In this document: positions 1-7,975 of the stretch, piece after piece
Position numbering within the stretch: position 1 is the stretch's first letter
Layout of the letters: the number at the start of each line of letters is the position of its first letter
From: Candidatus Woesearchaeota archaeon
GTDB taxonomy: Archaea > Nanobdellota > Nanobdellia > Pacearchaeales > GW2011-AR1
Direction: 5' to 3'
Assembly: GCA_964594495.1 (NCBI GenBank)
Contig: CAZQLX010000015.1
Span: forward strand, 1-7,975
DNA length: 7,975 nucleotides
Notes under the pieces: model-generated
Told to the model about the DNA's origin: nothing
Databases searched by the model: none
The model's input: the letters and a program-made list of their open reading frames with translations, nothing else
Program-made: the position numbers and the translations under genes

Positions 1-58
1 TTGTTTGAAATTAGTGATAGATTGAGAAGGATAAAGTAGTTAAAAGATTAGGAGATAT

Positions 59-244
59 TTATCCAAACTTTTCTATCTTAAGAATAATCTCTTTCTCTGA
101 GAAAGATTGGACTTTCCATATTCTTTTTGCGCCTGAAGAGGCATTAAGGGTAATTTTATCGAATTTTATTTCTCCATTATCTGGACCTTCTATTGTATAA
201 CTGCCTTCTTCTAGCAGGTTTTTTGGTGTTTCTTTTTTTTCCAT
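59..244 (-). CDS. hypothetical small protein (61 aa)
   Basis: ORF from the supplied track. It lies on the same strand as the carbamoyltransferase and 36 nt downstream of it. A TATA-like octamer (266-273) ends 21 nt before its ATG, the spacing seen at other genes here. No family motif recognised. Confidence 0.5.
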   Translation of the reverse strand: MEKKETPKNLLEEGSYTIEGPDNGEIKFDKITLNASSGAKRIWKVQSFSEKEIILKIEKFG

Positions 245-265
245 GTTTTTTTGAGAAAAAAGAGG

Positions 266-273
266 TTTAATAA
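266..273 (-). promoter_or_regulatory. TATA-box-like element upstream of the 61-aa ORF
   Basis: The + strand reads tttaataa (minus strand ttattaaa). There are 21 nt between the element and the ATG at 242-244, and no SD-like purine run. Confidence 0.4.
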
Positions 274-280
274 TGTTTCT

Positions 281-2014
281 TTAATTTTGTGAGCGTTGCA
301 TGAGATTTCTTTCAATGATAAAATTTTCTATTATAAGATAATCAATCTTGCTCCTTTTAAAAGTATTAATTGCATCCTGTGGAGAACAAACAATGGGTTC
401 TTGAATATTAAAAGAAGTATTTAGTACAAGAGGAATACCTGTTAAGTTCTTAAATTCTTTTATGACTTTGTAATATTTGAGGTCTATATTTTTTGATACT
501 AATTGTAGTCTTGCAGTGTTATCAACATGTGTAACTGCTGGAATTAATTTAATCTTTTCTGGTTTTACTTTGTAAGTGATTAACATATAATATGCTGGCG
601 AATCGAATTTTTTAACATTAAACCATTTTTTAGCATCTTCTTCAAGTACACTCGGACAAAAAGGTCTAAAAACTTCTCTAAATTTAACTTTTCTGTTTAG
701 TTCATCTCTTATTACGGGGCTTCTTGGATCTGCTAAAATACTTCTATGGCCTAATGCTCTCGGTCCCATTTCCATTTTTCCTTGAAAACGTGCAATAATG
801 TTTCCCTTGCTTAGCAATAAAGCAGTAAGTTTTTCTATATTTTTTACTTTTTTATAAGGAATTTTATTTTTATCTAAAGTTGTTTTAATATCTTTTTCAG
901 AATATTTAGGACCTAAATAGGCATCTTTTAACGATGTTTTGTGAGGTTTATTTAGAATTTGATTCCACATATAATAAACAGCTCCAATAGCCGTGCCTGC
1001 ATCATTTGCCGCGGGTTCTATGAATATGTTTTTGAATTGAGTAGAAGGAAGTATTTTACTATTTGCGACGCAATTAAGTGCTACTCCCCCAGCCATACTT
1101 ATATTTTCATTGTGGGTTTCTTTGTATAATCTTTTTACTAAATTTATTATGACTTTTTCCGTTATTTTTTGTAATGATGCAGCAATATTTTCATGAATTG
1201 CGAGTATATGTGAGTTTTGATCTCTTTTTTTAACATTGAATAATTTCTCTAGTTCCTTAAAATTATTTGTTCGAAATTGCATAATTTTATCATTTATTTT
1301 AAACGTGCCATTTTTATTTAGTTTTACAATTTTTTTCATTTGAGGCATCATTTTTTGAGCTTCTCCATAAGAAGATAATCCCATAACTTTTGCTGCATCA
1401 TATTCAGTAAATCCTAAAAATTCCGATATTTTTTCCCATAGAAACCCAAGGGAATCAGGGTATTCTATTTGCAATAATTTATGAATTTTATTTTTCTTTC
1501 CATATCCTAACCATGTACTTGCGGATTCTGCGATTCCGTCTATAATTAATATTGCAGAATCTTTAAATGGAGATAGAAAAAATGCGCTTGCTGCATGACA
1601 AATATGATGTGGTAAAAAATGAAACCTCGTACTTATATCTTCTCCGAAAAGCTTGCTTAGTTTCTTTGGGATATTCATTATTTTTCTATAAAAAATCTTC
1701 TCTCCTTGTTTTGTTCCCCAAGAACTTTTTTGCAAATTTTTCCAGCTGTCTTTGTTTGTACCATTTGCTAATCTAGATTTTGGAAAAAAAGAGTAGCAGA
1801 AATAATCTATGTCTTTAATTTTTATATTTGCCTGATTTGTACAATAATTAATTGCGTTAAGTGGGAGCTCGTCCGGATTATTCACTTGAGCGGTTTTTGC
1901 ATGCTTTTTTCTATTAAATCTTTCTTCTTCAACGAATCCTATAATTTTTCCATCCTTTAATAGACAAGCTGATGATTCATGATATGCCGAATTAATGCCC
2001 AATATATAAGTCAT
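281..2014 (-). CDS. carbamoyltransferase, NodU/CmcH/TobZ family (577 aa)
   Basis: Full-length ORF. The N-terminus MTYILGINSAYHESSACLLKDGKIIGFVEEERFNRKKH is typical of the family. Further family motifs are HHICHAASAF (metal-binding His cluster of the Kae1/ASKHA-like domain), GGVALNCVANSKI and C-terminal NTSFNIQEPIVCSPQDA. Confidence 0.93.
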   Translation of the reverse strand: MTYILGINSAYHESSACLLKDGKIIGFVEEERFNRKKHAKTAQVNNPDELPLNAINYCTNQANIKIKDIDYFCYSFFPKSRLANGTNKDSWKNLQKSSWGTKQGEKIFYRKIMNIPKKLSKLFGEDISTRFHFLPHHICHAASAFFLSPFKDSAILIIDGIAESASTWLGYGKKNKIHKLLQIEYPDSLGFLWEKISEFLGFTEYDAAKVMGLSSYGEAQKMMPQMKKIVKLNKNGTFKINDKIMQFRTNNFKELEKLFNVKKRDQNSHILAIHENIAASLQKITEKVIINLVKRLYKETHNENISMAGGVALNCVANSKILPSTQFKNIFIEPAANDAGTAIGAVYYMWNQILNKPHKTSLKDAYLGPKYSEKDIKTTLDKNKIPYKKVKNIEKLTALLLSKGNIIARFQGKMEMGPRALGHRSILADPRSPVIRDELNRKVKFREVFRPFCPSVLEEDAKKWFNVKKFDSPAYYMLITYKVKPEKIKLIPAVTHVDNTARLQLVSKNIDLKYYKVIKEFKNLTGIPLVLNTSFNIQEPIVCSPQDAINTFKRSKIDYLIIENFIIERNLMQRSQN

Positions 2015-2042
2015 CTTTCTCTAAGTTTTTAATATTGAATCC

Positions 2043-2050
2043 TTTATATA
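2043..2050 (-). promoter_or_regulatory. TATA-box-like element upstream of the carbamoyltransferase (possibly bidirectional)
   Basis: The + strand reads tttatata (minus strand tatataaa), preceded on the minus strand by an A-run. There are 28 nt to the ATG at 2012-2014. The near-palindromic octamer also sits 21 nt upstream of position 2072 on the + strand. Confidence 0.5.
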
Positions 2051-2090
2051 CTTTTTTTGATTTACTATAAAATGAAAAGGGCATTTGTCT

Positions 2091-2156
2091 CTAAAAAGTG
2101 GACCATGTAGGGGGAAGAAAATACGAGGGAGAAAAGTAAAGGATGTCACTTTTTAG
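2091..2156. repeat. inverted repeat / stem-loop with purine-rich 41-nt loop in a divergent intergenic region
   Basis: ctaaaaagtggac (2091-2103) pairs with gtcactttttag (2145-2156), giving 12 bp with one bulged G (2101). The loop (2104-2144) is catgtagggggaagaaaatacgagggagaaaagtaaaggat. The right arm ends in a T5 run. Confidence 0.6.
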
Positions 2157-2212
2157 TTATTTGATATATAAGTTTATGGTTATTGAAACAATTATTTTTT
2201 TATAACTGATTC

Positions 2213-2220
2213 TATATAAA
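2213..2220 (+). promoter_or_regulatory. TATA-box-like element upstream of the zinc-ribbon ORF
   Basis: tatataaa lies exactly 21 nt before the ATG at 2242. Confidence 0.5.
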
Positions 2221-2241
2221 GAGAAGTTGTTTGGAATGATT

Positions 2242-2433
2242 ATGATAAAAGGAGTTACCTGCTTGATGCCCGAACAATGCAGTAAATGTGGCGAACTCTT
2301 TGATCTGAGCTATGACCTTGAGAGAGAAGGATTTGTAAATAAGGAGGCTATTGTTGTTGAAATTGTTGGCAAAATGGCTAGACGTAGGGAAGAAAGGAGA
2401 AAACATCTTTGTTGGAGATGTAGAGGAAATTAA
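2242..2433 (+). CDS. small zinc-ribbon-like protein (CxxC...CxxC), 63 aa from ATG 2242
   Basis: The track ORF 2227-2433 begins at TTG. In-frame ATGs occur at 2236 and 2242, and the TATA spacing favours 2242 (MIKGVTCLMPEQCSKCGE...). Two CxxC pairs are present (CSKC and CWRC), and the basic C-terminal segment is RRREERRKH. The antisense ORF 2212-2406 is low-complexity. Confidence 0.6.
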   Translation: MIKGVTCLMPEQCSKCGELFDLSYDLEREGFVNKEAIVVEIVGKMARRREERRKHLCWRCRGN

Positions 2434-2531
2434 ATAGAGTGCGCAGCTACAAATATTGTTTATTGTTTTTGGATGAAGAGAAATAAAGAGGAAGAAGTGT
2501 GTGAAATTTGGAAGTTACTTCTTAATGGAAA

Positions 2532-2539
2532 TATATAAA
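2532..2539 (+). promoter_or_regulatory. TATA-box-like element upstream of the 54-aa ORF
   Basis: tatataaa lies within aaatatataaaaa, 23 nt before the ATG at 2563. Confidence 0.4.
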
Positions 2540-2562
2540 AACTTTAGATATCTTGATTTGTA

Positions 2563-2727
2563 ATGAATGGTGAAACAAAATTAAGAAGTGTTATCGTAAA
2601 AAACCCATGTGCATTAGCTATTTCGGGCACGGCTGTAGTTGCTGCTCCTATCTCTGGAGGAGTAATACTTTATGTTCCTCAGGGAGCAGAATTTTATTTG
2701 GTAGAAAAAAAAGACTTAATTCTCTAA
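2563..2727 (+). CDS. hypothetical small protein (54 aa), not in the supplied ORF track
   Basis: Hand translation gives MNGETKLRSVIVKNPCALAISGTAVVAAPISGGVILYVPQGAEFYLVEKKDLIL, ending at TAA 2725-2727. This segment is visibly more G+C-rich than the flanking spacer, and a TATA-like element sits at the standard distance. No family recognised. Confidence 0.45.
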   Translation: MNGETKLRSVIVKNPCALAISGTAVVAAPISGGVILYVPQGAEFYLVEKKDLIL

Positions 2728-2747
2728 GTTAATTCTACGTAATTAAG

Positions 2748-2755
2748 TTTATTAA
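2748..2755 (+). promoter_or_regulatory. TATA-box-like element upstream of uppP
   Basis: tttattaa lies 21 nt before the ATG at 2777. An in-frame stop at 2771-2773 excludes a longer N-terminus. Confidence 0.5.
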
Positions 2756-2776
2756 TTGAATGAAATGATGTAGACT

Positions 2777-3556
2777 ATGAATGAGATTGTAGCAACGATT
2801 GTACTGGCAATTATTCAAGGGATTGCTGAATGGTTTCCGGTATCGAGTTCGAGCCATTTAGTTATATTCTCTCATATTCTAGGATTTGAAAATAGTTTAG
2901 CTTTTGATGTTGCTTTGCATTTTGGTACGCTAATGGCCGTTTTTGTTTATTTTGGAAGAGATATAGTTGATATTGTTAGAGATTTGTTAACGGGAAAATG
3001 GAAGAGTGAACATGGGAAATTGGGAATTTTGTTAATTATTGCTGCAATTCCTGCAGCATTGTTTGGATATTTTATGAGTCCGATTATGGGGGGGAGTTTT
3101 GGTAACTTAGGATTGATTGCAATGGGCTTGGCAGTCACTTCTATGTTATTGTTTATTGCTTCTACTGGATTTCAATATAAGAAAAATGGTAAATTGGGAT
3201 ATGCAGCAGCAATAACAATTGGATTGGTGCAGATGTTAGCTATATTTAGAGGGGTATCAAGAACTGGAAGTACGGTTTCTGCGGGATTGTTATATGGATT
3301 AAATGAAAAGACGGCGGTGAAGTTTTCATTTTTGCTTTCTATTCCGATTGTGTTCGGGGCGAATATTATCTCAATTGGAAATAATGCGATTCCTACGCAT
3401 TACATTTGGGCCGCTTTAATTGCATTTGTTGTTGGGCTGTTAACGATCAATTTGTCTTATAAGTATGTACTATCTAATAGAAAGAATCTGAGATGGTTTG
3501 CTTTGTATACTTTGCTTTTGGCGATTGGATTGGGTGTTTATGTAATGATTATTTAG
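2777..3556 (+). CDS. uppP: undecaprenyl-diphosphate phosphatase (UppP/BacA family), 259 aa polytopic membrane protein
   Basis: Signature motifs are AEWFPVSSSSHL (canonical E-x-L/F-P-h-S-S-x-x-H) and FRGVSRTGSTV (canonical P-G-x-S-R-S-G-x-T). The sequence is hydrophobic throughout and of typical length. Confidence 0.94.
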   Translation: MNEIVATIVLAIIQGIAEWFPVSSSSHLVIFSHILGFENSLAFDVALHFGTLMAVFVYFGRDIVDIVRDLLTGKWKSEHGKLGILLIIAAIPAALFGYFMSPIMGGSFGNLGLIAMGLAVTSMLLFIASTGFQYKKNGKLGYAAAITIGLVQMLAIFRGVSRTGSTVSAGLLYGLNEKTAVKFSFLLSIPIVFGANIISIGNNAIPTHYIWAALIAFVVGLLTINLSYKYVLSNRKNLRWFALYTLLLAIGLGVYVMII

Positions 3557-3589
3557 TTATACATACATCTTAATAAGGGACGAAAGAGT

Positions 3590-3598
3590 GGTTTTTTT
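3590..3598 (+). terminator. oligo-T tract downstream of uppP
   Basis: ggttttttt contains a T7 run at 3592-3598, about 35 nt after the uppP stop. This fits archaeal oligo-T termination. No strong preceding hairpin was seen. Confidence 0.3.
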
Positions 3599-3648
3599 AT
3601 GAAGACAGAATGTAAAGTATGGTGTGACACTTGCTCCTTCAAAACCAA

Positions 3649-3746
3649 ATAGAAACAGAGTATCTATCCTTAGTTCTAGAGTTAATGTTGGAATTGGCAA
3701 ACCTGTTGTGAAAGGCTAGTTATTTACTTGTAGACTCTGTTTCTAT
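3649..3746. repeat. perfect 13-bp inverted repeat spanning the stop codon of the Cys-repeat gene
   Basis: atagaaacagagt (3649-3661) is the exact reverse complement of actctgtttctat (3734-3746), with a 72-nt spacer. On the minus-strand transcript the distal arm is followed by uuugguuuug. Confidence 0.6.
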
Positions 3747-4865
3747 GTTTTCGCATATGGAACTATCTTTTTTATAAAATGCTAGAGAATAGTAACAGTC
3801 ATCTTTAGCAATTGTATCTATAATTGATGCACACATTGATATAGTTACATTTCTATTCAGAATTAGATCAATTGTTGATTCATGATAACATTTTCTTTTT
3901 TTGCTTATGTCATCGTTATTTTCACATACTAGGGGATTTTCAGTTAGAAATGCAGTCTGTGTAAAGCAATTTTCTTTTAAGTAATCACTTATAATCTCTT
4001 TACATACAGCAGGGTTTTTTGATTCCGATATTACATTTTCGTAACAAGATTCGGTAGGACCTAAGAATCGCGTTTCCCCTGCATTTTCCGGAATATACTC
4101 TTTTTGTGCAACGATGTGACCATCTGAAAGCTTATTACATTCGGTAATACTTTTGGCAGATACAGCAACCCTTTCATAGCATTGCTCTTTTGTTGCTTGT
4201 TCCAAGATATTATTGCAAATAGAACTGTCTTTTTTAGCGCCCGCAATTAAAATATAACATTGAGAAAGGTACGATGTTGAATATTCTCCGCTAATTGATT
4301 TACATATAGTTTCGTCATTAATTGTTGTTGCAATTTTTGTATAACAGAAGTTTTTACGGTTATTTCCGAGTACTTTTTCACATAGCAAAGGATCATTTCG
4401 TTTTTCTGCTATTTTACTATAGCACTCGTCATAATTTGAGAACTCGCCTTTACCTATATCAGTAATTGCTCTGTTTTGAATTTTTTCACATAGCTCAGCA
4501 TTGTTTGTATTAAGAGCTACTTGAGTATAGCACGCATCTTTATGAGTCTCTTTTAATTTCTCGCATCCTGATGCATCTTTGTTCGCGATAGAGAATTCTG
4601 CATAGCAAGTTTCTTCTGCATTCAGCCATCTTTTTCCTATCTCTTCACATTTTGATAGATCTTGTTTTTGAATTGCAACTTGTATGTAACATGATGCTTT
4701 TAATTCTTCATTATTAAGATTTTCACACTCTGTTATTATTGATGAATTTTGTTTGTCTGAATTAAGAAAAAGAATCAAAAGGACAAGAATCACTAGTAAA
4801 ATAACACCTAAAATAATCCAGATGTATTTTTTAATCCCATTTTTTGAGGTTTCAGAATCATCCAT
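3720..4865 (-). CDS. membrane-anchored cysteine-rich tandem-repeat protein (381 aa), uncharacterised
   Basis: Long ORF. An N-terminal Lys-flanked TM helix (IWIILGVILLVILVLLILFL) predicts an N-in/C-out topology. It is followed by 11 units of C-[YF]-x3-[AIV]-x(8-9)-C-[EKN]-x-[IL]. A TATA-like element lies 22 nt upstream of the ATG. Confidence 0.85.
   Translation of the reverse strand: MDDSETSKNGIKKYIWIILGVILLVILVLLILFLNSDKQNSSIITECENLNNEELKASCYIQVAIQKQDLSKCEEIGKRWLNAEETCYAEFSIANKDASGCEKLKETHKDACYTQVALNTNNAELCEKIQNRAITDIGKGEFSNYDECYSKIAEKRNDPLLCEKVLGNNRKNFCYTKIATTINDETICKSISGEYSTSYLSQCYILIAGAKKDSSICNNILEQATKEQCYERVAVSAKSITECNKLSDGHIVAQKEYIPENAGETRFLGPTESCYENVISESKNPAVCKEIISDYLKENCFTQTAFLTENPLVCENNDDISKKRKCYHESTIDLILNRNVTISMCASIIDTIAKDDCYYSLAFYKKDSSICENIETESTSK
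3753..4727 (-). repeat. protein-level tandem repeat array (11 units, C-x13-C spacing)
   Basis: There are 23 Cys, at aa 47, 59, 73, 87, 101, 112, 126, 148, 162, 174, 188, 203, 217, 229, 243, 274, 288, 300, 314, 326, 345, 357 and 371. Ten of the 11 units have exactly 13 residues between their two Cys; one has 18. The repeats are diverged at the DNA level. Confidence 0.8.
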
Positions 4866-4887
4866 ACCACTGAAGAAGAGAACATAT

Positions 4888-4895
4888 TATATAAA
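4888..4895 (-). promoter_or_regulatory. TATA-box-like element upstream of the Cys-repeat gene
   Basis: The minus strand reads tttatata, 22 nt before the ATG at 4863-4865. It sits in the 40-nt spacer after the alaS stop. Confidence 0.5.
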
Positions 4896-4905
4896 TGTTA
4901 ATGAA

Positions 4906-7065
4906 TTATTCTACAATTGCTTTGATTCTTCTTATACCTGCAGCAACAGCTTCTTCTTTGATTATCTTGAAATGACCTAGTTCTGAGGTGTTGCTAACGT
5001 GTGGACCGGTACAAATTTCTTTTGAGAACCAACCGCGCTTTTTATCGTTTGGGTCGATAATTGTGTATACAGAAACGAGATCAGGGTATTTGGCTCCGAA
5101 TTCTGCTTGTGCACCTGAAGAGAGAGCAGAAGGAAGAGGAATCTCTTCTCTTTTTACAGATAGAGAGGCTTTTATTTTGTCGTTAACAATGGTTTCAACT
5201 TTTTTTATCTCGTCATCAGTGAGTTTGCGAGGGAAATTAAAATCGAAACGGAGGCGTTCGGATGTGATGTTAGAACCTTTTTGTTTTATGTCTTTTGAAA
5301 GAATTTGTCGAAGAGCTTCATTTAGAAGATGTGTTGCTGTATGTAATCTTCTAAATTCTATTGTATCTCCAGCAAGACCTGATTTGAATACTCCGGCAGA
5401 AGCAGTACGTGAAAGATCTTGATGTTTTTGGAATTCTTGGTTGTATTCTTCTAGATCGACTTTAATTGATTTTTCATCTGCTAACTCTTGTGTGAATTCG
5501 ATTGGAAATCCATAAGATTGGAAAAGAAGGAAAGCATCGATACCGGTAATAACTTTTTTATCTTGTGATATCTCTTTAAACTTTTTAATTCCAGCGTCTA
5601 ATGTTTTATTGAATCGTTCTTCTTCGAGGTTTAGTTCTTCAATGATGAATTTGTGATTTCTATGTAGTTCTTGATAGTCTGGATAAACTGAAAGAATAGA
5701 TTTAGATACTTTAGAAGTAAAATTATCTTTAATGCCGAGAAGCTTACCATACCTTATTGCGCGACGGATGAGACGTCTTAAAACGTAACCTTGTCCGATA
5801 TTTGATGGTTTAATTGCTCTTTCATCGCCTAGAATGAAGGTTGCTGCACGAATGTGATCGGCAATGATACGCATTGCTTTGGTATCGTTATCATTACTGC
5901 CATATTTCTTATGTGATATGGATTCTATTTCTTTTATAATTGGTTGAAATATTGTGGAGAGATAATTGTCATTTAGATTATTGAGAATCGTGAGGGTTCT
6001 TTCTACTCCCATTCCGGTGTCTACGTTCTTTTGGGAAAGAGGGACAAATTTAATGGCATTATCCTCTAGAAATTCTTTAATTTTTTCATCATCGTTTTTG
6101 TAAAGCAGAGTAGTTTTAATGCCTACTTTATGTGCTCCAGCTAAATTATCATCACTATGATCAAAATAAACTAATTGTTGTGGAACGAGATTATATTTTT
6201 CTAGAAGTTTATTGAAGAATTCAGGATTTTCCTTCTTTATTTCACCTTCAAAAGAAAATACTTCAAAACCTTTATTTTTTAATATCTTTTCTGCTTTTTC
6301 TTTATGTTTATTAATAACTAATATTTTCTTATTGTTAAAATTGTCTAATACGTTACTGAGTTCTGTATTAATTTCAAAGTTTTCATCGTATAAACAATCC
6401 ATTCCGTCAACTAAAAGCACAGTTTTACTTTTGTTATATTGCATAAAGACATCATTCCATATTTCTACCCAGTTTTTGTCTTTTGGATCGAATTTCTTTG
6501 GAGTTTTTTTACCGATGTAGTAAAACATTTCAGTATCTGGACCGCATGGGCCTGTTTCTCCAGCGGGACCCCACCAATTGTCCTTTTTTGGCAGAAAAGC
6601 AATGCGTTCTTTTGGAATTCCTAAGGAAAGCCAAATTTTAGCAGACTCTTCATCTTTTGGAGCATCTTTGTCTCCTTCAAAAACAGAAATTGCGAGTTTG
6701 TCTATGGGAAGTTTAAGGTTTTTTGTTAAGAATTCAAATGAAAACTTTATAGCATCTTCTTTAAAATAATCACCTAGAGACCAATTCCCTAACATTTCGA
6801 AGAAAGTGTGATGAGTTGTGTTACCTACTTCATCAATATCTCCTGTCCTGACACATTTTTGAACGTCAACAAGGCGTTTTCCTAGAGGATGTTTTTGACC
6901 GAGTAGAAAGGGAACGAGAGGATGCATGCCTGCAGTTGTGAAGAGAACAGTGGGATCGTTTTCGGGAATAAGGGAGGAAGAGGGGATATGTTTATGATGT
7001 TTTGATTTGAAGAATTCTACATATTCTTTAATTAGGTCTTGACGAGTTTTTATCTTTGTGTTCAT
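4906..7065 (-). CDS. alaS: alanine--tRNA ligase (bacterial-type AlaRS), 719 aa, with internal insertion and reduced C-terminal architecture
   Basis: Bacterial AlaRS motifs are present: DPTVLFTTAGM, QKCVRTGDIDEVG, HHTFFEMLGNWSLGDYFK, GPCGPDTEMFY, IWNDVFMQYN, DTGMGVER, ADHIRAATF and GYVLRRLIRRA. The editing-site zinc motifs are HTATH (aa 575-579) and CTGPH (aa 685-689). Confidence 0.95.
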   Translation of the reverse strand: MNTKIKTRQDLIKEYVEFFKSKHHKHIPSSSLIPENDPTVLFTTAGMHPLVPFLLGQKHPLGKRLVDVQKCVRTGDIDEVGNTTHHTFFEMLGNWSLGDYFKEDAIKFSFEFLTKNLKLPIDKLAISVFEGDKDAPKDEESAKIWLSLGIPKERIAFLPKKDNWWGPAGETGPCGPDTEMFYYIGKKTPKKFDPKDKNWVEIWNDVFMQYNKSKTVLLVDGMDCLYDENFEINTELSNVLDNFNNKKILVINKHKEKAEKILKNKGFEVFSFEGEIKKENPEFFNKLLEKYNLVPQQLVYFDHSDDNLAGAHKVGIKTTLLYKNDDEKIKEFLEDNAIKFVPLSQKNVDTGMGVERTLTILNNLNDNYLSTIFQPIIKEIESISHKKYGSNDNDTKAMRIIADHIRAATFILGDERAIKPSNIGQGYVLRRLIRRAIRYGKLLGIKDNFTSKVSKSILSVYPDYQELHRNHKFIIEELNLEEERFNKTLDAGIKKFKEISQDKKVITGIDAFLLFQSYGFPIEFTQELADEKSIKVDLEEYNQEFQKHQDLSRTASAGVFKSGLAGDTIEFRRLHTATHLLNEALRQILSKDIKQKGSNITSERLRFDFNFPRKLTDDEIKKVETIVNDKIKASLSVKREEIPLPSALSSGAQAEFGAKYPDLVSVYTIIDPNDKKRGWFSKEICTGPHVSNTSELGHFKIIKEEAVAAGIRRIKAIVE
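6049..6423 (-). other. HAD-phosphatase-like domain (about 125 aa) inserted in the AlaRS catalytic domain
   Basis: The insertion covers aa 215-339, between ...VFMQYNKSK and FVPLSQKNVDTGMGVER.... HAD-like elements are VLLVDGMDCL (motif I-like) and KILVINK (motif II position). They are followed by KKENPEFFNKLLEKYNLVPQQLVYFDHSDDNLAGAHKVGIKTTLL (motif III Lys plus the motif IV acidic cluster). Confidence 0.65.
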
Positions 7066-7086
7066 ATAGTGGTAGATTGAAAAGTG

Positions 7087-7094
7087 TATATAAA
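7087..7094 (-). promoter_or_regulatory. TATA-box-like element upstream of alaS
   Basis: The minus strand reads tttatata, 21 nt before the ATG at 7063-7065. There is no SD-like sequence. Confidence 0.5.
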
Positions 7095-7103
7095 ATTATT
7101 GAA

Positions 7104-7682
7104 TTATGCGGCTTTTAAAAGAAGCTTATTTTGCTGATAAAACTGTTCTACACTGTTGGGAATTCCCATTTTTGTCCACCACGGAGGGTTTTTCTCAAAG
7201 TCTCTTTCTCTTCCTTTATATTTAATTTTTCCGTGATAAATCATATAAGGCAAGTGAAAAGGAACTAAATGGGGACTAAGACGTTCTCCTTCTTGTTCAG
7301 GACGAATATGTAGTAATCTTTTTCCTTGAAACATTTCTCCAAGTCTAAGAACTGCTCTTCTCACAGCAACATCCTGAATGTGGTTGCTTGAAGTTTCTTG
7401 TAGATTATAGTCAAATCCTGCGTTTACATTGGATGGGGCAGTATCATATACATCGGAAGCTACACGTGTAAGCCAATTTAGAACCTCTCTTTCTTTTTTT
7501 AAGTGTTCGTAGTAAGCGTCTTCATATATTTGAAGTGCTTCTGGTTTGAAAATTATTCTGTCTCCCCATTGCCATCCAAGGCACCATTGATTTACACCAT
7601 ATTGATCATCAAATTTTTTATGAAGCTCTTCTCTACTAGCGCCGAAGTATCCAGGTCTATCAACAATCTCCCATCCAACCAT
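7104..7682 (-). CDS. hypothetical protein (192 aa), soluble, Trp/Arg/His-rich
   Basis: Long ORF with no TM segment or low-complexity stretch. A TATA-like element lies 21 nt upstream. Its composition differs from the Lys/Ile/Asn-rich neighbours. No family recognised. Confidence 0.75.
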   Translation of the reverse strand: MVGWEIVDRPGYFGASREELHKKFDDQYGVNQWCLGWQWGDRIIFKPEALQIYEDAYYEHLKKEREVLNWLTRVASDVYDTAPSNVNAGFDYNLQETSSNHIQDVAVRRAVLRLGEMFQGKRLLHIRPEQEGERLSPHLVPFHLPYMIYHGKIKYKGRERDFEKNPPWWTKMGIPNSVEQFYQQNKLLLKAA

Positions 7683-7703
7683 TTAAATTTATTAAGAAGT
7701 TGG

Positions 7704-7711
7704 TTAATAAA
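7704..7711 (-). promoter_or_regulatory. TATA-box-like element upstream of the 192-aa ORF
   Basis: The minus strand reads tttattaa, the same octamer as at uppP, 21 nt before the ATG at 7680-7682. A second tttatata-type element lies at 7714-7724. Confidence 0.45.
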
Positions 7712-7727
7712 GATTTATATAAAAGAT

Positions 7728-7975
7728 TTACGATCTCAATTTGGCTAACTTGTCTTTGATCATTGTGAGTTCGTCTTCTATCGTAAGATCTTTTGGATCA
7801 AAGTGATGTTCGATTTCGTGATGGATTGTTTCATGGAGAGTTTCTTTTTCATCATGGCGAGGATGATGAATCTTAGCATGGGGGAGAAGTTTATCTAGAA
7901 TTGTTAATTGTTCGTCTAAATCTTCAGGGATGATTGCTTTATAATTTGGGTTTTTGTCGTGCCATTCCTTAAGTT
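7728..7975 (-). CDS. 3'-terminal part of a His-rich hypothetical protein (gene continues beyond the window)
   Basis: Hand translation of the minus strand gives 82 stop-free codons: ...LKEWHDKNPNYKAIIPEDLDEQLTILDKLLPHAKIHHPRHDEKETLHETIHHEIEHHFDPKDLTIEDELTMIKDKLAKLRS, then TAA at 7728-7730. An open frame this long is unlikely by chance in such AT-rich DNA. It is absent from the ORF track because its start lies outside the window. Confidence 0.5.
   Translation of the reverse strand, partial: LKEWHDKNPNYKAIIPEDLDEQLTILDKLLPHAKIHHPRHDEKETLHETIHHEIEHHFDPKDLTIEDELTMIKDKLAKLRS

Follow-up and report, generated by a model that had tools for sequence, protein, structure and literature searches.

A putative cap-less HAD mini-domain nested, apparently as an optional cassette, in the catalytic core of a short alanyl-tRNA synthetase from a DPANN archaeon

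Alanyl-tRNA synthetase (AlaRS) is among the most conserved enzymes known, and HAD enzymes are ubiquitous. The nesting of domains within aminoacyl-tRNA synthetases is already known from CP1, from the INS domain of ProRS and from the arrangement described by NF040702, and cap-less HADs use macromolecular substrates or a neighbouring subunit as their cap. In our literature searches, no description was found of an AlaRS, or of any other aminoacyl-tRNA synthetase, with a HAD insertion in DPANN archaea or in the candidate phyla radiation (CPR). Here we analyze a stretch of 7,975 nucleotides (contig CAZQLX010000015.1, positions 1 to 7,975, of assembly GCA_964594495.1, filed as Candidatus Woesearchaeota archaeon; hereafter the window), whose host is a Pacearchaeota-like DPANN archaeon. 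Its reverse strand carries a complete AlaRS gene of the short bacterial type, the catalytic core of which is interrupted in frame by about 125 residues that, judging from profile searches and structure prediction, form a HAD-superfamily mini-domain. The parts of this gene are as follows.

4906..7065, (-): complete AlaRS gene of the short (C-Ala-less) bacterial type, insert-bearing, 719 aa (open reading frame list and family matches)
6424..7065, (-): N-terminal part of the AlaRS catalytic domain (aa 1-214), up to and including the active-site strand NWVEIWNDVFMQYNKS (aligns to 1riq 10-206)
6049..6423, (-): putative nested cap-less HAD-like mini-domain, G-type (DGMxCLYD), aa 215-339 (TIGR01509, AlphaFold2, Foldseek)
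5998..6048, (-): AlaRS hairpin return strand and motif-3 region, F340-VPLSQKNVDTGMGVER356 (alignment A4, AlphaFold2)
4909..5343, (-): AlaRS editing (second additional) domain with intact HxxxH and CxxxH zinc motifs (Pfam tRNA_SAD, PF07973, E 6e-15)

The 719-aa protein matches Pfam tRNA-synt_2c (PF01411) with an E-value of 1e-131 (440 bits, cutoff 30.3), TIGR00344 with 564 bits (cutoff 457) and NCBIfam NF002436, an equivalog model for AlaRS of about 595 aa, with 800 bits (cutoff 529). The NF002436 match is interrupted near model position 209, and every AlaRS family match of the protein is split in two. Outside the insert, the protein is 75-81% identical to insert-less orthologues. An alignment of 82 sequences including the window protein (A4) shows D349, G351, G353, E355 and R356 of the motif-3 region, the N211 region and the zinc residues H575, H579, C685 and H689 of the editing domain to be invariant, and all invariant catalytic and editing columns are present in the window AlaRS. 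Given that every family-invariant catalytic and editing residue is kept, the host enzyme appears intact and should still charge tRNA-Ala. The full-length AlphaFold2 model superposes on AlaRS catalytic fragments with target-normalized TM-scores (TMt) of 0.78-0.85, leaving an unaligned gap of about 125 columns. Per-residue confidence (pLDDT) falls below 50 over aa 27-98 (window ~6772-6987), the motif 1/2 region, where residues are nearly invariant; a shallow alignment, rather than disorder, is the probable reason. A considerable part of this AlaRS clade carries the variant N-I-D-F-G-G-G in place of N-V-D-T-G-M-G in the motif-3 strand, which contains the alanine-binding Asp, and the variant is seen both with and without the insert (e.g., L001:6001-8178 and L002:118-1905).

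The insertion site can be located precisely. When the protein is aligned to the Aquifex AlaRS structure 1riq, residues 13-215 correspond to chain positions 10-206 and residues 340-553 to positions 209-426, and therefore about 124 residues are extra in the window AlaRS. Alignments with the E. coli, human and remaining solved AlaRS are interrupted in the same place, and no insertion in this hairpin was found in any solved AlaRS compared. An alignment of the 120 best database relatives shows that insert-less orthologues read FMQYNKTKDGKYxPLKQKNVDTGMG across the site, and the window protein reads FMQYNKSK, then the insert from T215 to K339, then FVPLSQKNVDTGMG; the site is the tip of the hairpin joining the FMQYN strand to the DTGMG (motif 3) strand, the two active-site strands that bind the amino acid. 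Codon arithmetic places aa 215-339 at 6049-6423, with the frame open throughout. In the full-length model the insert has a pLDDT of 89-97, the host strand of residues 199-214 leads straight into the first HAD strand (216-220), and the last HAD helix (326-336) is followed by one residue and then by the host strand of residues 338-351. The HAD domain is thus modeled as grafted onto the hairpin tip by one-residue linkers, which stand 4-9 residues from the active-site Asn211 and Asp349. A first-pass annotation, made from the letters alone, had already claimed about 125 extra in-frame residues in the AlaRS catalytic core at 6049-6423; alignment to solved AlaRS places the break exactly there, and the coordinates, junctions and peptide motifs quoted in it are all correct by the 1riq and 120-sequence alignments and by codon arithmetic.

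The same annotation had read the insert as a cap-less, catalytically divergent HAD-like Rossmannoid domain, and this reading is borne out by both profiles and predicted structure. The isolated insert scores 32.4 bits against TIGR01509, the model for HAD-IA variant 3 ('third motif DD or ED'), above the cutoff of 29.4; within the whole protein the score is 28.9. It also matches the models for Sdt1-type pyrimidine 5'-nucleotidases (E 1e-7) and for YihX (E 8e-7), and its profile aligns motifs II-IV to those of solved HAD-IA variant 3 enzymes. AlphaFold2, supplied with an alignment of 38 homologous inserts, folds it with a pLDDT of 94.8 and a predicted TM-score (pTM) of 0.89 into five strands and five helices in the order b1-a1-b2-a2-b3-a3-b4-a4-b5-a5. 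Because only some 20 residues separate strand 1 from helix 1, the domain has no cap; between these two elements, where HADs carry their squiggle and flap, the model shows short bridge residues at insert positions 10, 14 and 20. The top 50 Foldseek matches in the PDB are all HAD cores, with query-normalized TM-scores (TMq) of 0.62-0.68, and they include XMP phosphatase (7ef7), the N-terminal phosphatase of soluble epoxide hydrolase (sEH), MDP-1, YihX and KDO8P phosphatase. On these grounds the insert appears to be a genuine HAD-superfamily mini-domain of about 125 aa that has no cap and folds autonomously; the HAD profile searches, AlaRS alignment and structure comparison proposed in the first-pass annotation have thereby yielded both a HAD fold and a mapped insertion point. 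Its candidate active-site motifs lie at the following positions.

6394..6408, (-): HAD motif I equivalent, D220-G-M-D-C224 (invariants of alignment A1; end of strand 1 in the model)
6310..6315, (-): HAD motif II equivalent, I251-N252 (alignments)
6232..6234, (-): HAD motif III, Lys278 (alignments A1 and A2)
6145..6162, (-): HAD motif IV equivalent, D302-H303-S-D-D-N307 (profile alignment and A1 invariants)

In the model, D220, N252, K278 and D302-H303 lie where strands 1, 2 and 4 end and ahead of helix 3, at the C-terminal edge of the sheet. Invariant in the 38 inserts are D220, which occupies the nucleophile position, N252, K278, F284, Y300, D302, H303 and A311, with N307 nearly so; K278, invariant across the AlaRS inserts (A1), is also the sole invariant column in the alignment of free-standing relatives (A2). 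The motifs nevertheless depart from the canonical ones. The family consensus for motif I is hhhhD-[GA]-[MIV]-x-[CT]-L as against the canonical hhhhDxDx[TV]: the position two residues after the nucleophile (Asp+2) is Met222 in the window, Met, Ile or Val in 38/38 inserts and hydrophobic in the free-standing family, and Cys224 stands at the Thr position, where the family has Cys or Thr. The first-pass annotation was right to call DGMDC non-canonical; the second Asp (D223), however, lies at a variable position and the true Asp+2 is Met222. In motif II the Ser/Thr position, which it had thought replaced by Asn, is in fact Ile251, with Asn252 the invariant residue after it; G-type inserts have Val or Ile here (LVINK in the window), and the Thr/Ser is kept in A-type inserts (VVTNA) and most free-standing members. 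The motif IV it had likened to GDxxxD is present, but it is of the DD/ED type, with a register fixed by the profile alignment, where TM_1254 reads F-E-D and drimenol synthase D-D: D302 is kept (D or E in relatives), and the second acid is the invariant His303, which stands where variant-3 enzymes place their second, Mg-binding Asp, giving the family motif YF-D-H-xxx-N. This pattern recurs in the free-standing relatives (DAxxT, TNA, K, F-[ED]-H).

Ratios of nonsynonymous to synonymous substitution (dN/dS), computed for the same gene pairs in the best-conserved insert subtype, are 0.07-0.14 for the insert and 0.15-0.25 for the host, which indicates purifying selection on the insert no weaker than that acting on AlaRS itself. 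Since the pocket residues are invariant and dN/dS lies below that of the host, the HAD pocket itself is under selection. Composition sets the insert apart: in the window it has 25.9% GC and an isoelectric point (pI) of 5.1, compared with 36.4% and 8.9 for the rest of the gene. Across 24 homologues, insert GC is consistently below host GC (27% vs 35%), but insert GC at third codon positions (GC3) tracks that of the host, so that the low GC looks like a family-wide effect of amino-acid composition rather than of recent foreign origin. The acidity of the insert, together with a charge that varies among homologues, argues against a conserved RNA-binding surface; the RNA-binding module proposed in the first-pass annotation is disfavoured accordingly, and a basic module of that kind was rejected at pI 5.1.

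The NCBI protein identical to that of the window (P0001) comes from a single contig. Among the 120 closest AlaRS clusters, whose source names point to Pacearchaeota and Nanoarchaeota, the insert is found at the same site in 39 (699-769 aa) and is absent in 81 (587-627 aa). The GTDB species genomes hold 22 further full-length AlaRS genes with the insert, in metagenome-assembled genomes (MAGs) of Pacearchaeota, Woesearchaeota and Nanoarchaeia, a survey biased towards G-type inserts by the G-type-only profile with which it was run. The survey of DPANN and CPR AlaRS suggested in the first-pass annotation has thus recovered the same insert at the same site, and at least 60 independently assembled insert-bearing AlaRS genes are now at hand, from many samples and sources and including one CPR bacterium. 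The latter gene (L011:3353-5476) lies on a 487-kb Komeilibacteria contig, encodes a protein 50% identical to that of the window and has bacterial neighbours, SecA and MnmA on one side and the S13, S11 and S4 genes on the other; the insert-bearing AlaRS therefore crosses the divide between archaea and bacteria. On a 'Curtissbacteria' contig (L030:3344-4189) the AlaRS frame stops inside the insert, which may reflect a pseudogene or a sequencing error. Neither the window nor L002, a locus without the insert, contains a second copy of the mini-HAD.

This distribution bears on two further claims of the first-pass annotation. It had suggested that the insert might compensate for the missing C-terminal domains, which is contradicted by the 81 of 120 closest AlaRS that are equally short and carry no insert; compensation for an absent C-Ala domain was rejected because such insert-less short orthologues are the majority. 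Its statement that no aminoacyl-tRNA synthetase with a HAD module at this place had been described agrees with the literature we searched, but dozens of such sequences already stand in public databases under automatic names. Some are called 'HAD-IA family hydrolase' or 'alanine--tRNA ligase-related protein': the insert splits the coverage of family models, and therefore automatic annotation mislabels some members.

The history of the insert does not follow that of its host. For most insert-bearing proteins the nearest relative by host part is insert-less, as in the pairs P0011/P0084 (88% identity), P0014/P0104 (87%) and the window protein/P0017 (81%). The genes for P0011, which has the insert, and P0084, which lacks it, show about 83% DNA identity over their whole length; a single clean in-frame indel of 372 nt separates them, and no repeats are seen at its junction. 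Across 60 insert-bearing genes (1,770 pairs), insert identity and host identity show a Spearman correlation of 0.005, compared with 0.29-0.78 for each 50-aa window of the host against the rest of the host, and the correlation does not rise near the junctions, i.e., there is no gradient of co-transferred flanks. Two deep types of insert exist, G (DGMxCLYD) and A (DAINxLID), with a mean identity of 38% between them, and hosts 80-81% identical can carry inserts only 33-38% identical (G vs A). One tight host cluster (81-83% identity) unites P0005 (G), P0008 and P0009 (A) and P0022 (none), and another (80%) unites P0012 (G) with P0023 and P0044 (A). Presence and absence require at least 18 changes on a neighbour-joining (NJ) host tree of the 120 sequences (random expectation 33, random minimum 25), a count to be read as an upper-bound estimate of gain and loss since it comes from an NJ tree only, of proteins 60-80% identical. 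We contend that the insert in AlaRS behaves as an optional cassette at one fixed site, carried by roughly one in three of the closest relatives and with a history decoupled from that of the host, and that it has apparently been repeatedly gained, lost or replaced and is dispensable for AlaRS as such.

The exchange seems to be old. In every pair synonymous divergence (dS) exceeds 1 and is saturated, and the GC3 of the insert goes with that of its host, so none of the events has been caught in the act; pairs in which the insert is more conserved than the host are accordingly explained by stronger constraint and not by recent transfer. No mobility gene was found, and family scans of the insert and the protein returned no nuclease, Hint or recombinase domain. 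A search for terminal repeats or target-site duplications around 6049 and 6423 gave only short A/T-rich chance matches. As for phage, defence or viral links, there was one weak phage match, no PADLOC match and only a generic HAD PHROG.

The mini-HAD is not confined to AlaRS. A word-index protein search with the insert only returned no matches even though its parent protein is in the database, and the profile version returned 14; an exhaustive phmmer search of 1.84 billion representatives recovered 199 relatives at E<1e-3. Many of these are free-standing proteins of about 125 aa with the N-terminus MKTILVDA..., and others are nested in or fused to the following hosts.

P0171, P0186, P0195: bacterial-type LeuRS with nested mini-HAD; P0171 also with NUDIX and Ham1
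P0173, P0175, P0191: ValRS with mini-HAD; P0173 and P0175 also with a GNAT domain
P0163: class II LysRS with the mini-HAD as a C-terminal fusion
P0187: GyrA as mini-HAD host
P0129: ribosomal protein L22 as mini-HAD host
P0140: flavin reductase as mini-HAD host

The free-standing G-type genes (P0123, P0127, L019 and L027) are 59-61% identical to some AlaRS G-inserts, for which the G-type average is 52%, and A-type AlaRS inserts are 39-43% identical to the copies in ValRS, LysRS, GyrA and L22 and 38% identical to G-type AlaRS inserts. We regard the mini-HAD, on the strength of these alignments, as a distinct family of about 125 aa, lacking Asp+2, bearing an Asp-His pair and occurring free-standing or nested and fused. 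In a Nanoarchaeia MAG (L019:2352-4372) the start of a free-standing G-type gene and the GlyRS stop codon share one base (TAATG), which suggests translational coupling of the two. Elsewhere, free-standing copies adjoin two tandem nucleoside-diphosphate kinase (NDK) genes (L032:3521-5465) or amidohydrolase and NUDIX genes (L033:1133-5786).

Other features of the family may be recorded here. The giant class I synthetases of 1250-1350 aa (P0171, P0186, P0173, P0175 and P0195) carry several nested enzymes at sites that differ among them: in LeuRS, NUDIX, Ham1/ITPase and mini-HAD, or GNAT, serine hydrolase and mini-HAD; in ValRS, GNAT and mini-HAD. A membrane-anchored sub-family (P0138, P0157, P0158, P0167, P0214 and P0269), with mutually homologous N-terminal parts, consists of a signal peptide, an S/T/P-rich low-complexity region, a transmembrane helix, a coiled coil and a C-terminal mini-HAD. 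On a Pacearchaeota contig (L029:3887-4291) a decayed free-standing copy is split by stop codons and may be a pseudogene or a sequencing error.

Taking the evidence as a whole, we consider it probable that a real cap-less mini-HAD has been grafted onto the AlaRS hairpin, as an optional, exchanged cassette holding a pocket for binding or slow turnover. Recombination, either across the nearly invariant strands on its flanks or with free-standing paralogues, would account for the gain, loss and swapping of the cassette, which would be tolerated because the hairpin tip is a permissive site. Its pocket would keep the Asp nucleophile, the Lys, the Asn and one acid, with Asp+2 lost and His in place of the Mg-binding Asp. 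Because the Asp+2 general acid is lost and His replaces that Asp, an ordinary fast Mg-dependent phosphatase is unlikely, and the domain would more likely bind, or slowly turn over, a phosphorylated or nucleotide-type ligand. Candidates are a product or by-product of aminoacylation (AMP or another nucleoside monophosphate, pyrophosphate (PPi) or an acyl-phosphate) or the phosphate of a tRNA end, and the body of AlaRS would serve as the cap and supply expression. The association with synthetases and the neighbours from nucleotide metabolism (NUDIX, Ham1, NDK and amidohydrolase) hint at a nucleotide or tRNA-end substrate.

Several observations weigh against this explanation. The Pfam HAD models stay below their gathering thresholds (PF00702 22.7 vs 26.4, PF13419 20.2 vs 23.8). 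Asp+2 and the second motif-IV Asp are missing, as is the motif II Thr in the window protein, so that the mini-HAD could be nothing but a pseudoenzyme. For the proposed substrate the argument is weak guilt by association, and the family is not exclusive to synthetases, given its membrane-anchored members and its many fusion partners without any family match. Some phylogenetic signal for presence and absence also remains (18 steps vs 33 at random), the number of gains and losses is the upper bound described above, and with dS saturated everywhere no recent transfer has been caught.

Other explanations have to be weighed alongside it. The insert might be a non-catalytic pseudo-HAD with a regulatory or scaffolding role, either a long-lived aspartyl-phosphate switch of the P-type ATPase or CheY kind or a docking module that tunes or tethers AlaRS, which we judge unlikely. 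Loss of Asp+2 slows the hydrolysis of aspartyl-phosphate in P-type ATPases, and the same loss here would suit such a switch, as would rigid one-residue linkers near Asn211 and Asp349 that could transmit a conformational change, and the presence of the domain in many unrelated hosts; yet the invariance of Asp, Lys, Asp-His and Asn is equally compatible with catalysis, and the existence of insert-less orthologues means that such regulation is not required. The first idea of the first-pass annotation, a cis-acting phosphohydrolase that performs quality control or clears products beside the synthetic site, seems rather improbable to us. Its substrates would be misactivated Ser-AMP or Gly-AMP, a phosphorylated intermediate, AMP or PPi, or it would heal a phosphorylated tRNA 3' end. 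The replacement of the Asp+2 acid/base and of the Mg-ligand Asp of motif IV in every family member, and of the motif II Thr too in the window, speaks against it, as do the two thirds of closest AlaRS orthologues that function without the insert, the intact editing domain that AlaRS already has and the occurrence of the family in GyrA, L22 and membrane-anchored proteins and on its own. Set against this are the recurrence of the mini-HAD with five synthetases (AlaRS, LeuRS, ValRS, LysRS and GlyRS), best sequence and fold matches among nucleotide and sugar-phosphate phosphatases (Sdt1-type 5'-nucleotidase, YihX and XMP phosphatase), the co-nesting of NUDIX and Ham1 in LeuRS and strong purifying selection on the pocket residues.

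A further possibility is a selfish or neutral in-frame 'domain parasite' without a role in AlaRS, which would persist, as inteins do, since its imprecise loss from so conserved a part of an essential gene would be lethal. The patchy distribution at one site flanked by two of the most conserved AlaRS strands, the decoupled histories of insert and host, the mostly essential information-processing proteins that serve as hosts elsewhere and the decayed free-standing copy are all in its favour. We nevertheless see little probability in it: nuclease, Hint and recombinase domains are lacking, neither terminal repeats nor target duplications were seen, saturated dS and a GC3 that tracks the host mark a long-term resident, free-standing genes of the family are common, and an invariant HAD pocket with dN/dS below that of the host argues for a selected biochemical function. 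An artefact or intervening sequence, that is, an assembly chimera, an intein or a segment removed from the mRNA or protein, is in our view practically negligible as an explanation. The lower GC of the insert (25.9% vs 36.4%) and the single NCBI contig behind the exact protein would fit it. The frame is open, however, the junctions are conserved in place, selection acts at the protein level and the GC difference is the family-wide composition effect in which GC3 follows the host; a chimera was rejected on the at least 60 independent genes with the same architecture and site. An intein or intron was likewise rejected, since there is no Hint or intein match, the residue downstream of the insert (F340) is not Cys, Ser or Thr, and the insert does not end in His-Asn: it begins Thr215-Val and ends Ile-Lys339 before Phe340, and its junction residues vary among homologues.

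Beyond the optional cassette with a binding or slow-turnover pocket, which we continue to prefer for AlaRS, it can tentatively be speculated that the mini-HAD represents an unrecognised, horizontally mobile DPANN/CPR module that nests in frame in the essential AlaRS, LeuRS, ValRS, LysRS, GyrA and L22. It would then be either a non-splicing 'domain parasite' or a synthetase-associated factor with Asp/His chemistry, e.g., in the processing of tRNA ends or of adenylates and nucleotides.

The remaining features of the window lie on both sides of the AlaRS gene.

281-2014, (-): NodU/CmcH-type carbamoyltransferase (Carbam_trans_N/C)
2227-2433, (+): 68-aa CxxC...CxxC zinc-ribbon open reading frame
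2777-3556, (+): BacA/UppP undecaprenyl-diphosphatase
3720-4865, (-): 381-aa protein with an N-terminal hydrophobic helix and about a dozen tandem Cys-pair repeats (no Pfam match)
7104-7682, (-): 192-aa protein without a family match

The repeat of the 381-aa protein reads roughly C-x6-10-C-Y-x2-[VI]-A-x5-D-x3-C, and the AlaRS-BacA neighbourhood recurs beside the insert-less orthologue in L002.

A folded, selected and yet dispensable module in the AlaRS hairpin shows what structural accretion an essential catalytic core tolerates. In DPANN and CPR organisms, whose genomes are reduced, it occurs in five synthetase families, gyrase and a ribosomal protein, which points either to a general way of packaging small enzymes inside essential genes or to a synthetase-linked activity; should the synthetase-associated factor be real, aminoacylation in ultra-small cells would gain a new layer. 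On the practical side, mislabelling of what is presumably the sole AlaRS in such genomes would distort completeness estimates and metabolic inferences for MAGs. Naturally occurring pairs that are 88% identical, of which one member has the insert and the other lacks it, constitute a ready-made experiment.

Compared with known systems, the closest to the host is the short bacterial-type AlaRS of about 595 aa (NF002436/PRK01584) of Pacearchaeota, Nanoarchaeota and CPR. The window protein shares its catalytic, tRNA-recognition and editing domains, its lack of C-Ala, the sequence identity of the host part given above and the BacA neighbourhood, and differs by the 125 residues added at the FMQYN/DTGMG hairpin, which split the family model at about position 209. 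For the insert, the nearest relatives are the HAD-IA variant 3 enzymes of TIGR01509 (YihX, Sdt1-type, XMP phosphatase 7ef7, TM_1254 and the sEH N-terminal phosphatase), which have the same Rossmannoid core and whose motifs II-IV come in the same order and at the same spacing (hhhh[T]N, K-x-x-x-P-x-x-F and hhhF-[DE]-x...N/A...A...GI). Unlike them, the mini-HAD has no cap, a hydrophobic Asp+2 position and His as the second DD/ED residue, and its G-type has lost the motif II Thr. The cap-less C0 HADs, such as MDP-1 (2wm8/1u7p), the KDO8P phosphatase YrbI (1k1e) and the phosphatase domain of T4 Pnkp, are likewise minimal cores (Foldseek TMq 0.62-0.66); they keep DxDxT and an acidic motif IV in 150-180 aa, whereas the mini-HAD, at about 125 aa, has neither.

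With respect to nesting, CP1 of LeuRS, IleRS and ValRS, the INS domain of ProRS and the GNAT domain of IleRS (NF040702) similarly place a whole globular domain within a synthetase catalytic fold and leave the synthetic site intact, and NF040702 shows that lineage-specific nesting in synthetases has already been recognised by curators. Whereas CP1 and INS are ancient domains with an established role in editing and occur throughout their respective families, the AlaRS insert is optional and lineage-patchy, has a HAD fold and sits in a class II hairpin. Inteins resemble it in being in-frame, optional and patchy, in occupying one fixed conserved site of an essential gene and in having a history independent of the host; in contrast to them, the insert lacks a Hint fold, a homing endonuclease and the junction residues needed for splicing, and it is predicted to stay in the mature enzyme. 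What appears to be new relative to all of these systems is the hairpin position, the family of Asp+2-less, Asp-His mini-HADs, their optional and exchanged distribution and their recurrence across essential enzymes of DPANN archaea and CPR bacteria.

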